From: Eledone cirrhosa
Taxonomy: Eukaryota
Length of the DNA stretch: 64,000 nucleotides
Direction of reading: 5' to 3'
Assembly: GCA_964016885.1 (NCBI GenBank)
Contig: OZ024744.1
Span: 80,848,001-80,912,000, forward strand
In this document: piece by piece, positions 17,866-41,289 of the stretch
How the letters are laid out: the number at the start of each line of letters is the position of its first letter
Position numbering within the stretch: position 1 is the first letter of the stretch
The notes under the pieces: model-generated
The model's input: the letters and a program-made list of their open reading frames with translations, nothing else
The model's database searches: none
Told to the model about the DNA's origin: nothing
Made by a program: the position numbers and the translations under genes

Positions 17866-17944
17866 CCCTTACTGATCAGTTTCGCTTTGTAAAACCTCAT
17901 AAATCCGATGGATTTATGATGGAAAACCAAAGCTCATCAGAGAA
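17866..17944 (-). ncRNA. Type I hammerhead ribozyme, family D copy 1
   Basis: Minus strand reads ttct-CTGATGA-GCTTTG..TCATAAATCC atc GGATTTATGA..CAAAGC-GAA-ACTGATCAGT-A-aggg. Confidence 0.85.
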
Positions 17945-31289: not shown

Positions 31290-34200
31290 CTAATAATGAA
31301 ATTATTGTGTACAGTGCTCAGGTGCACTACAACTCGTCAAAGGTGCATGTATAGTACATATAATCATATACAAATGTCAGAGAAGTGAACAGTGTATGAG
31401 TCATGATATATCATACATGTGGGCGTGTGTATGGAGGGAGGGGTATCAGATGTAATGTTGGCGAATCTCAGGAAACATGGAGATTTTAAAGGATCCAGTG
31501 TCTCGACAGCTAAACAACTGATGTAGGGAGTTTGTTCCATGGAGGTTTTAAAGGATGCAGTGTCCCAGCAGCTAACAACTGATGCAGGTAGTTTGTTCCA
31601 TGCTTCAGAAACTCTGAGCATGAAAAAATGTTTCAGAAAATCATGGGAGCTGTGCTGTTTTCTGACTGTGTGGGCATGCCCATGTGTGTTAGACACATGG
31701 AAATCAAAAAGGTACTCAGGGTTGTTATTGGTAGGATGGTTAATAATTTTGTGGGTGTTTACCAAGTCAGTTACCAGACGTCGGAGATTCAATGTATCGA
31801 TGCCCAGGGAAGCAAGGCGTTCAGAGTATGGTAGATGCCTGATGGAGGGTATTCGCTTGGTTGCACGTCTCTGAACAGTTTCCAGGCAGTCAATATTCTG
31901 AGCAAGATAGGGGTTCCAGACTGGTGATGCAAATTCTAAGTGTGGCTGCACCATAGCTATATACAGCTTTAAATAGGTAGCTGGAGAATGGCTGACAAAG
32001 GTCTTGCTGAGTGATGCTAAGACACCCTCGGCCTTCTTGACAATTTTAGAGACGTGCTTCGTCCAACACAAATCCCTGCTGACCGTAATGCCCAGGTCAT
32101 GTTCACAAGAAGACTTCTTGATATTAGTGTTGTGGAAGGAGTATGTGGACGCTGGGTTTTTACTCACAAAATGCATGGTGGTACACTTGTCCACAGCCAA
32201 CTTGAGTTGCCAGTCCGTGATCCATTGTTGCATTGTGCCCATGTCAGATTGCAGGCAAGATCTATAGTGTTCAGGATCTGTCCTTTTTATCTCAAGGTAC
32301 AGCTTGATGTCATCTGCATATTTCAGTACTGTGGCATTCTTTAAGTTGGCGTCTATGTCATTAATATATGCCACAAACAAAAGGGGGCCAAGAACAGATC
32401 CCTGTGGTGAGGAATGCTGTCCTAGAACCGTAACTACCTCTCTTTGACTGAGAATAAAGGACTTCAACCAGTTAAAAAGATCATCCTTCACACCCATTGC
32501 AGAGAGTTTTTCCATAAGTATTTTGTGTGGCACAGAATTGAAAGCTTTAGCAAAGTCAAGGTAAACAACATCCACCCATGAGCAGCTATCAGTGATCCGG
32601 GTGATGTCTTCAAGAAACTCGATAAGTTGATCACAGCAGCTGAAATTAGGGATAAATCCAAATTGCGAGGGCCGGATAAGACTGTGAGGGTTCCAGAAGT
32701 TCCAAAGCGTTTCACTGACACAGGATTCCATCAGTTTGGCAATGCAGCTAGTAAGACTGACTAGATGATAGTTGACAGGTGATGTGCGGTCACCCTTTTT
32801 GAACAGAGGAATGACACTGGCAGTTTTCCACTGATCTGGAGTAGTACCGTTGTTCAGACAGAATTGGAAGAAGCGTGATAGCTGGTACAGAAGGAAGTAC
32901 CCATCACATTTGAGAAGCAGGTACATAACATCATCATGACCAGGAGAGGCATGGTTGCATTTATTTTTAAGGTGACATTGCAGCATTGCAGGTGTAAATT
33001 CCATAGTTGTAATAGAATCCGATGTCAGAGGTGGTGGAGATGGTACACTCTGGTCATCAATAGTGAAAATGCCTGCATAGCATTCAGCAATGAACTCTGC
33101 GCATTCCTTGAGGTCATCAGTAACCTGGTTTGTGTGGGGATTGCGAAAAGGACCAACTGGAGAGTGAGGCCTCTGCTTTGAGTGAACATACTTCCAGAAC
33201 ACCTTACTGTCAGGACTGGTTGCTATGCGCTGCTCAAATTGAAGTACTGCCTTTTGTGTCACCTGTTTGAGATGGTTGGATGATTTATTTCCCTTCTTCT
33301 TATTGACATCTGATTTATGCAGTTTGTACTCACGTTCAGCATTACCATGTTCTTTTCTGCCGCAGTCTCCCAAATTGCACTATTGGGATGTTTTTTCTGC
33401 TTACGTGGCACTGATGCTGCACATGCTGTCCATATTGAGTTCAGGATGTTCTGGAGTACAGTGTTGACATCTCCAGAGTTGTAAAACTCAAGCCAGTTTG
33501 GATGTTGCAACTCGGTGCAATAACAGTTCCAGTCTGCTTTATTCCAGTCAAAGTGAGCAGTTTGAGATGGTTGTGGTTTTTGTTACTGCCCATAAGGGAT
33601 AGATTGGCAATGATCATAGCATGATCAGAGTCACCTAAAGGTTCCTCAGTAATAACACTAATAACCATTTCAGGAGTAGTGGTGAAGAGTAGGTCCAAAG
33701 TGTTGTCACATACTTGGGACCAGTTCAAGTCCAGCACTTGCTCAAGGAAGTCATTTTCACTTGGTGGCCAATAAAAGGTTTCCCAATCAATCTCAAGGTG
33801 ATTGAAGTCCTCTGCAATAAAAACATAAGTGGCTGTTTTCCTGGCAACAACTCTGAGGATATCACAAAGTTGAGTGTCCTGATGGTAATTTGGGGGATGG
33901 TAAACGACTCCAAGTAGCAGTGTTGATATGGTCATATGTATATTGCCGAAAAATTTGACCGAACGTAGACCATTACACCACCACCACGATGATTAATGCG
34001 GTCTTTATGAAACAAGTTGTAGCCAGTTATGTTGAAAACCCCATCACAGAGTAAGGAATGTGCCCATGTTTCCATGACTGTAATGAAGTCAGGGTTGATA
34101 CTTTTGACGTAGAAGTAAAAAAGATGAATCTTATTGCATAGACTATGTGCATTCAAGGACAACAATTTGTACCTTGATTCAAGTCTATGCTTATGTGCAA

Positions 34201-36144: not shown

Positions 36145-36510
36145 CGGAAAAAATGAAACGAAATTTCATTTCCCACTCTTAGTACGGCTGTTACTTAAAT
36201 ATAAGTATGTACACGTACATACATATATGTATACAGACGTACAGTAGTATGTATATATATATACATACATGCACACATATATATATATATGTACGTATGG
36301 ATTCACCGAACATTTATTATAATGCTCGGTGTGTTTGTAAACAAACATCCCGTATTAAGCCGTACGGTGTCTAGCAACCATTGTTGCTCGCTTGATCAAC
36401 ACTGACAAAGGAACGCTGTACTAGTTTCAAGCTTATTAGCTATCGTCAGCAACGTATACCTTCCTGCCAGATAGTTGAACATATATACTTACCTTATGCA
36501 TATTAACGCA
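36145..36510 (-). mobile_element. Hammerhead-carrying non-coding element, family E (partial monomer)
   Basis: Highly similar to 58944-59450. Flanked by (TA)n. Confidence 0.75.
36413..36455 (-). ncRNA. Type I hammerhead ribozyme, family E
   Basis: Minus strand reads ACGTTG-CTGACGA-tAGC taataa GCTt-GAA-ACTAGT-A-CAGCGT. Confidence 0.85.
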
Positions 36511-36596: not shown

Positions 36597-36634
36597 CCTT
36601 TTGAAAAGCAGAAGAACTGCGAAACCGGTAAAGG
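36597..36634 (+). ncRNA. Minimal type I hammerhead, U3-A8 core variant
   Basis: CCTT-TTGAAAA-GCAG aagaa CTGC-GAA-ACCGGT-A-AAGG. AATAAA at 36640-36645. Confidence 0.8.
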
Positions 36635-40176: not shown

Positions 40177-40376
40177 CCAATGTGGTATTTCAACCCTCAT
40201 AATTTTAGACATACAATTTACTGTGTTTATTTCTACATATATTATATATATATCCAAAATTAAATTAAGGGTGTTATGTCCAAGAGACATGCACCATATC
40301 CACTGTAGAATATGCTCAAAGATTCCAATGAATAGATCCGCATTTACTGTGTAAACACAGATAGTTAAATCTTCTC

Positions 40377-40440
40377 CCTTGTTGAAAATCCAGGATTTGA
40401 CTACTGTGATTTACGGATTGATGGTGAAATATATACAAGG
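40377..40440 (+). ncRNA. Type I hammerhead, U3-A8 core variant with long loop II
   Basis: CCTTG-TTGAAAA-tCCA...TGGt-GAA-ATATAT-A-CAAGG. Stem I extends with AATCTT/AAGATT. Confidence 0.7.
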
Positions 40441-40619
40441 AAGATTAATCATTTTAAAAGGTATCTATATTTAAAGTTCTAGTTAAACTTTAATTAGTTA
40501 CCTACCTAGCTGTGTGTGCTTACACACTTTACAAATTATTCCCTGTGATTGTTGTTTCATGTGTTTATTTTAGATATATATATATATCAATCAATTTCTA
40601 GTTGATATATATATATGCA

Positions 40620-40661
<42 letters not shown>

Positions 40662-40662
40662 C

Positions 40663-40990
40663 AATCGAAAGGTTGTGAGTTCAATTCTCGAACCGGGTGA
40701 TGTGTTGTTTCACTTTGCTCCAGTTTACTCAGCTGAAAATGTGTACCAGCAATAGCTGGAGGTTTAACCCTGCGATTGACTGGCGTCTTGTACTCTCAGT
40801 CGCTTCACGCCATGAAACCGAGATAAACGCCGGCCAAATGAGCCTTCTGGCTTAAGACAGACTTTAGACTTACGGCCTGCCCGCCCAGCCAGTGGGATGG
40901 CATCATCGTATGGCTAAAACAGCACGTGTTGTTACCAGCGGCGCCAAATGGCGCCCAACAGACTGGTCGGTCAAGGTGATCGAGGTGATA
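40663..40990 (+). mobile_element. 5'-truncated tRNA-derived SINE (family 2-related head)
   Basis: ggttgtgagttcaattctc..ccagtttactcagctg. The 3' part matches 27580-27685 on the opposite strand. Confidence 0.6.
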
Positions 40991-41121
40991 TATATCATAT
41001 ATATATATATATATTTTTATTTTTACTTTTATCATTATATTGTATTTTTTACTTAGTAACTTCCCTCCTTAAAAACCCTCCTTACTCCCTCTCTGAGTTC
41101 CTGTTCTTCCCCTATCCGAAC

Positions 41122-41157
41122 TTTCCTCGTGAAGGACTTCTGTTCGAAACGTTGAAA
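41122..41157 (+). ncRNA. Degenerate minimal hammerhead
   Basis: TTTC-CTCGTGA-a-GGAC ttct GTTC-GAA-ACGT-T-GAAA. Core positions 5 and 6 are mutated. Confidence 0.45.
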
Positions 41158-41289
41158 CATCCTCCACTTCTACCAAGCGTGAACCTAATATAATTGTGTA
41201 CAATTGCCTCCTGTGTTTTGTTCGTTCATTTTCAATTATATATATATATTTATATAATTTATATAATTATATATATATATATATTTATA

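Follow-up and report, generated by a model that had tools for sequence, protein, structure and literature searches.

A type I hammerhead in a non-coding repeat of Eledone cirrhosa, with two mutually exclusive predicted partners for its 5′ flank: a candidate transcription-timed switch

How the RNA circles of animal retrozymes and the templates of Penelope-like elements avoid being cut by the ribozyme that they carry is stated to be an open question in the accessible part of one account (PMC7229834), and what the Penelope hammerhead does is unclear according to what is available of two others (PMC11167929, PMC8557442); that of Anolis is assisted by a protein and is dispensable for insertion in vitro (PMC11167929). 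In the circles of viroids and plant retrozymes, as far as the accessible text goes, the ribozyme is blocked by self-pairing (PMC7229834). Pairing may also act in the other direction: the available sections of PMC3088659 describe pseudoknots between loop II and a flank that speed up hammerheads with a stem II of 1–2 bp. As for the core, U3-A8, U10.1·U11.1 and a 2-bp stem II figure among the published natural variants in PMC3088659 and PMC4209133, and G3-C8 is a laboratory mutant that only partly rescues (PMC8495972, PMC11167929). A natural G3-C8 core was not found in the literature searched, where only the rescue mutant appears, and the supplements of PMC3088659 and PMC4209133 and the alignments of Lunse 2017 may contain it.

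The locus that we consider lies in a stretch of 64,000 nucleotides analysed as a whole (hereafter the window), rich in microsatellites and retroelement fragments, from the 3.0-Gb genome of Eledone cirrhosa. It carries at 40373–40444 a type I hammerhead, recognized from its sequence anatomy, with a U3-A8 core and a predicted cut AUA^C after 40435, within a repeat unit of 539 nt (Table 1). Animal non-LTR retrozymes, as depicted in the accessible parts of PMC7229834 and of the preprint of Li, Clavereau and Pollet (2026, bioRxiv 10.64898/2026.07.22.740005), are likewise non-coding, low in GC, endowed with one type I hammerhead, arranged head-to-tail and dispersed; the present unit falls inside the 51–972-bp range of the preprint, and the U·U with which stem II begins in our family is shared by HHR_Amex2 of the axolotl. 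The latter differs from the retrozymes so depicted by a stem III of 9–11 bp, a stem I of 9 positions, a loop II of 29–33 nt and a pseudoknot of ~21 bp, and also because no long arrays were seen, the longest segment within 3-kb loci amounting to 1.7 units. According to the same part of PMC7229834, the ribozyme is predicted to remain accessible in most metazoan retrozyme circles; for our family, by contrast, the prediction is a block by self-pairing. With Penelope-like hammerheads, including that of Cercyon in Schistosoma (PMC4209133, accessible part), the family has in common the type I fold and the U3-A8 variant; it differs from them, as they are described there, in being without ORF, in having a complete stem III and not a minimal palindrome, in G3-C8 being its commonest core and in showing no G10.1-C11.1. 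The pseudoknotted hammerheads of PMC3088659 likewise associate pairing of loop II with the stem I-side flank, a very short stem II, U10.1·U11.1 and natural U3-A8, but the pseudoknots of its accessible part are of 4–6 bp and have no rival partner, whereas ours reaches ~21 bp and meets a competing downstream strand. Such a combination was not found in the literature searched, and the supplements of PMC3088659 and PMC4209133, like the alignments of Lunse 2017, may hold long pseudoknots. Finally, the hammerheads of viroids, plant retrozymes (PMC7229834, as far as accessible) and satRPV pass through a transient active fold and a stable inactive one, as proposed here, but these are type III motifs of plant RNAs, whereas ours is of type I and is carried by a genomic repeat of an animal, with one strand changing partner. 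The element, with its pseudoknotted type I hammerhead, is predicted to work like an animal retrozyme or like a non-autonomous derivative of Penelope.

Table 1. Features of the repeat copy and of other hammerhead-like motifs in the window (positions are those of the window)
Feature	Position	Strand	Remarks
Inverted 3′-end piece of the ~540-nt unit	40243-40345	-	shares a 12-base overlap, 40334-40345, with the forward piece
Forward piece of the ~540-nt unit, 5′-truncated	40334-40609	+	ends at an internal TATATA tract, runs into (TA)n 40605-40658
Flank F	40348-40372	+	partner is loop II (helix P) or R; pairing span 40351-40372
Stem I, 5′ strand	40373-40381	+	9 positions; C·A mismatch 40376/40441 in the subfamily of the window copy
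Catalytic core U3-U4-G5-A6-A7-A8-A9 (TTGAAAA)	40382-40388	+	
Stem II, 5′ strand	40389-40392	+	U·U mismatch and 3 bp (CCA/TGG) with 40422-40425
L, part of loop II complementary to F	40393-40414	+	3′ end 40410-40414 alternatively pairs 40424-40428 (hairpin X over G12-A14)
Linker, 7 nt, joining the distal end of helix P to stem II	40415-40421	+	can also pair 40445-40450 (helix Q)
Stem II, 3′ strand, and GAAA core box	40422-40429	+	strand 40422-40425, GAAA 40426-40429
Stem III, shortened to a palindrome, with the AUA triplet of the predicted cut	40430-40435	+	TATA 40430-40433
Stem I, 3′ strand, and tail	40436-40450	+	stem I strand is 40436-40444
R, second conserved complement of F	40506-40527	+	~70-90 nt 3′ of the predicted cut
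Other type I hammerhead-like motifs, other repeat families	36601, 39976, 59548	+	
Other type I hammerhead-like motifs, other repeat families	36449, 59259, 42162, 18425, 17940, 519	-	

A DNA search of the genome returned at least 95 matches (40 of 3,392 candidates scored), and a 19-letter core pattern has 709 exact matches genome-wide against 1 for its control, so that the family comprises at least 709 copies; its oldest subfamilies are ~70% identical to the young ones. The low-GC unit runs on continuously from head to tail, and no ORF was found attached to it in 134 scanned loci and three extended ones. Insertions were counted as 278 segments within 3-kb loci: their 3′ ends cluster at TATATA tracts, 87 in one 10-nt bin and 96 in another, their 5′ ends are dispersed, inverted pieces occur often, and one ribozyme is present in 171 segments and two in 8. 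These 5′-truncated partial tandems with inverted copies, fixed internal 3′ ends and (TA)n targets reproduce the pattern that the accessible part of PMC8557442 gives for Penelope-like elements, and the unit was likely mobilized by Penelope-like enzymes. Near three loci, in the same (TA)n tracts, we noticed broken ORF fragments of reverse transcriptase and GIY-YIG type (L135:4745-6158, L136:4571-6105 and L137:2584-3937; motifs seen by eye, one weak RVT_1 match, L136 and L137 being of one family, 88% alike); they are separate insertions across (TA)n in which no sequence in common with the unit was seen, and are candidates for the mobilizing partner. At a further locus (L063) both inverted copies of one insertion carry the rare A at core position 3, which suggests one template for both pieces. 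Ends of copies do not pile up at the predicted cut site in the 278 segments, and 179 of these span an intact site, so that the templates would have been either uncut or religated. Pieces of the unit also occur in DNA contigs or reads of other organisms' runs (six such runs were compared, and one of the same species), clearly in X4 and X10, and are too fragmented for covariation.

The copy of the window consists of an inverted and a forward piece set between (TA)n tracts. The sequence-only reading had announced there a hammerhead with core UUGAAAA, and this is the anatomy that we find; the 'first' U3-A8 motif to which it added this one is probably the unrelated motif at 36601. All nine positions of stem I can be placed in register, with a single C·A mismatch where 68 of 136 copies have C-G, and 18 nt of stem III, compared with the full stem of the family, have been lost between two 10-base direct repeats, leaving a palindrome. 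This copy is truncated and inverted and has lost most of stem III; to judge from its structure, it is probably a dead derivative unable to cut as a monomer. The idea that the short stem III might be the ancestral form was rejected: it has 27 exact matches genome-wide (control 3) and, among 86 parsed copies, is present in 7, which belong to two U-A backgrounds, so that at least two subfamilies carry it. A conserved hairpin at 40456–40499, between the tail of the ribozyme and R, appears in every fold shown, and the old subfamilies retain it although its sequence has changed; a small hairpin TTTAC/GTAAA at 40343–40355 is weak and missing from the oldest ones. Directly after the (TA)n tract, 40662–40880 is a stretch that we take, by eye, to be SINE-like with a tRNA-like head.

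A motif scanner proposes about ten type I hammerhead-like motifs in the window, and Rfam none. The motif at 36601 has a U3-A8 core, those at 36449 and 59259 have U·U at the base of stem II, and those at 17940 and 18425 make a tandem pair, 485 nt apart, with a long stem II; a degenerate word resembling a minimal hammerhead (TGAAGGA ... CGAAACGTTG, 41095–41160) failed the scanner. Fragments of LINE-type reverse transcriptase lie at 1138–2682 and 31364–33992 on the minus strand, one followed by a PHD finger, one placed after a piece of AP-endonuclease. For our hammerhead Rfam gave no hit, either at gathering score or at E ≤ 10, a miss explained by a long loop II and a variant core that are outside its models; a covariance model run on the 64-kb window found this hammerhead only.

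The family displays the type I signature, with core NUGANNA and a Watson-Crick 3-8 pair, GAAA, A15.1-U16.1 and H17, on three stems of which stem I is open and covarying, stem III being reduced to a palindrome in the window copy. Positions 3 and 8 make a Watson-Crick pair in 640 of the 709 matches (G-C 378, U-A 165, C-G 97; 69 other), G3-C8 being the commonest core and U3-A8 the second. In a tree built from the flanks only (75 of 136 rows, with a midpoint root, so that the order of events is not readable) the G3-C8 copies make one clade (98/90), the U-A copies enclose a group with C-G (100/97) and the old C-G copies fall separately, an arrangement which implies at least three two-sided changes of the pair. 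We judged this pair from the genome counts, its 100% score on 42 of 137 copies being circular since rows were picked by core type. Stem I covaries at 40378/40439 (U-A 66, C-G 57) and its extension TCT/AGA (40373–75/40442–44) forms standard pairs in 124–134 of 135–136 copies; stem III is 97% paired, and stem II, made of U·U and 2–3 bp, has one-sided changes only. Repeated compensated swaps in the 3-8 pair and in stem I are what selection would leave, and on this comparison of copies the hammerhead fold is under selection. In one old subfamily (L117, L127–L129, L131, L133, L134) several copies have C4 in the core (CCGAUGA), and it spread in this form (6 copies), which may reflect either tolerance of C4 or a time when cleavage was dispensable.

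Complementarity of loop II to 40351–40372 over about 20 bp, the central claim of the sequence-only reading, was borne out: helix P has 21 bp, or 22 with U40350·G40415, with bulges at A40361 and A40409 and G·U at 40366/40399 and 40372/40393. The F:L duplex reaches −23.3 kcal/mol, where the 24-mers of the window average −7.0 and none of 21,280 is as strong; no flank among 5,000 shuffled ones pairs L as strongly as F, and the region has a z of −2.5. A duplex of −15 kcal/mol or below is present in 92 of 120 parsed copies (167 examined). The check by covariation in homologues that had been recommended came out in favour of the helix, which is kept, with compensatory changes, in nine of nine subfamilies; two-sided changes link loop II to the stem I-side flank at 40353/40412 (A-U 101, G-C 15) and 40358/40406 (C-G 97, U-A 21), and the bulges shift register in the oldest subfamilies. 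With the same numbers of substitutions placed at random, P is as strong in 0.3–0.4% of trials for the two oldest subfamilies and in 3–11% for four others, and in a substitution test with another base it is kept in 0.1–27% of trials. Among 42 chosen copies, 59 cells have a two-sided change against 22.7 in shuffles (0/500), the number of pairs with such a change is not above shuffles (9 versus 8.4, 223/500), and RNAalifold returns no pairs from these decayed copies; within subfamilies P decays neutrally in single copies (G·U 68, A·C 67). Helix P abuts stem I without strand overlap, so that stem I need not be displaced. A straight helix of 20–22 bp needs a linker of 8–10 nt; the family has 7, 8 or 11 nt, mostly 7–8, and in most copies either 2–4 end pairs of P would therefore fray or the helix would bend, fraying of the far end freeing the arm of hairpin X. 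Taken together, P, a conserved and covarying helix, fits a long pseudoknot. The additional pairing of cggat with atccg (40336–40340) did not survive, although the words exist: 40339/40415 is standard in only 38 of 133 copies, and the pair is an accident of the inversion junction, 40334–40345 being the joint, and it requires C40414, also used by helix P.

Flank F has a further complement. F:R amounts to −22.2 kcal/mol in the window copy and −16 to −22 in nine of nine subfamily majorities; two of 2,833 control stretches of the window pair F as strongly, and F:R is at or below −15 in 87 of 120 parsed copies (167 examined), as against 8 of 120 for an upstream control. In all nine subfamilies the ribozyme strand forms stronger versions of both F:L and F:R than the complementary strand does. 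Taken alone, F:R is borderline in the substitution test (P 0.04–0.23), with mostly one-sided changes and subfamilies that are not independent. From these duplexes, F is predicted to have two mutually exclusive conserved partners, L and R. Folding of the whole unit gives helix P a probability of only 0.11–0.35, because F has this second partner. In folds of growing transcripts P dominates before R in nine of nine subfamilies; 60 nt past R, F:R dominates in seven; at 150 nt it holds in five, P being kept or regained in three and one being mixed. The segment from F to R folds with F:R winning in all nine and in the window copy (z −3.3). In this state stem I forms, stem II has at most 0.07 bp in subfamilies and 0.27 in the window copy, and the freed end of L pairs GGUGAA as hairpin X in seven of nine subfamilies; X is not predicted in the other two nor in the window copy, all of which have G at 40415. 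The overlap of the loop II pairing with AATCTT/AAGATT, pointed out earlier, is real, these words being an alternative register that belongs to the late F:R fold.

We regard it as an even bet that this type I hammerhead, in a ~540-nt non-coding repeat likely mobilized by Penelope-like enzymes, makes of the two conserved partners of F a transcription-timed switch. During transcription, F would pair with loop II in a long pseudoknot, a transient ON state that would hold stems I and II together, support the weak stem II and mask those bases of loop II that are able to pair G12–A14, so that cleavage would occur within that interval. After synthesis of R, ~90 nt beyond the cut, and likewise in RNA that is religated or of unit length, F would move to R: loop II would be freed, stem II unformed, and in most subfamilies hairpin X would cover the general base G12, an OFF fold in which the RNA may stay intact as a template for reverse transcription. 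P is assigned to ON by analogy with the accessible part of PMC3088659 and because the arm that would cover G12 is hidden in it, and F:R to OFF as the stable fold; since a pseudoknotted state is beyond the scoring of ViennaRNA, the ON label is a matter of logic and precedent. A template-protecting F:R fold fits the 179 segments with an intact site. That a strand-displacement timer, ~21-bp pseudoknot for ON and downstream anti-flank covering G12 for OFF, was kept while the 3-8 pair moved through C-G, U-A and G-C is a more tentative proposition, for which the chances are somewhat below even. Offered as alternatives, a long pseudoknot and an exclusive fold thus both seem true together, the main arm of the latter, R, lying outside the interval 40336–40446 where it had been placed; the polarity is probably opposite to a reading in which pairing blocks cleavage. 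The short linker, the lack of X in two of nine subfamilies, F:R holding in only five of nine at 150 nt and the C4 subfamily count against the switch, as do the absence of ends at the cut, the mere 8 segments with two ribozymes and dispensability in vitro (PMC11167929).

Several of these points also speak for there being no switch at all, the helices being kept for RNA stability or for recognition by reverse transcriptase, or being relics of old inverted duplications, next to a slow or dispensable ribozyme. Cores that are slow, G3-C8 giving only partial rescue (PMC8495972, PMC11167929), a stem II of U·U and 2–3 bp, a C4 subfamily, no ends at the cut and a hammerhead that insertion in vitro can do without (PMC11167929) all go in this direction; compensation in P and the strand asymmetry speak against neutral relics, and the repeated swaps in the 3-8 pair and stem I betray selection on the hammerhead fold; we hold this explanation to be rather unlikely. 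The reverse polarity, closest to the switch first imagined, would have P as an early inhibitory trap and R as an anti-inhibitor that frees loop II and extends stem I, for a delayed cleavage possibly helped by a Penelope protein. Inhibitory loop pairing with a switch exists in the satRPV hammerhead, a full-length P is sterically strained, and stem I (4–9 bp) forms only in the F:R state of nested folds. Yet its absence from the P state is produced by the nested folding itself, and the F:R state is predicted with a stem II of 0.00–0.07 bp and with G12–A14 paired in seven of nine subfamilies; we hold this explanation to be unlikely.

The geometry of the linker invites another view, which we deem unlikely: P, too long for 7–8 nt, would be OFF in cis, and the ribozyme would be made of two hairpins, one being P with the core in its loop, the other Q and stem III with an internal loop, active only when different units or molecules come together, P, stem I, Q and stem II then forming a four-way junction, with cleavage limited to multimers. 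Stems I, II, P and Q do meet with 0–1 unpaired base, the two-hairpin fold is a local minimum in six of eight majorities and in the window copy, Q is 94% paired as against 1–47% when slid, and cleavage of dimers only is known for animal type I hammerheads from the accessible parts of PMC4209133 and PMC7229834. But Q has no two-sided change, equals its shuffles and hardly occurs in the full-context ensembles, few insertions contain tandem ribozymes (8 of 278), and R is left unexplained.

Were the transcription-timed switch true, the self-pairing of F with R would provide an answer to the question of how animal retrozymes and Penelope templates escape their own ribozyme. For work on this question the family supplies a construct of 190 nt whose helices are named, together with compensatory variants and three core pairs that occur in nature. 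If there is a timed ribozyme switch here, RNA engineering could make use of it as a natural part. It is also worth emphasizing that motif searches that require C3-G8 and short loops overlook this family, as Rfam did.
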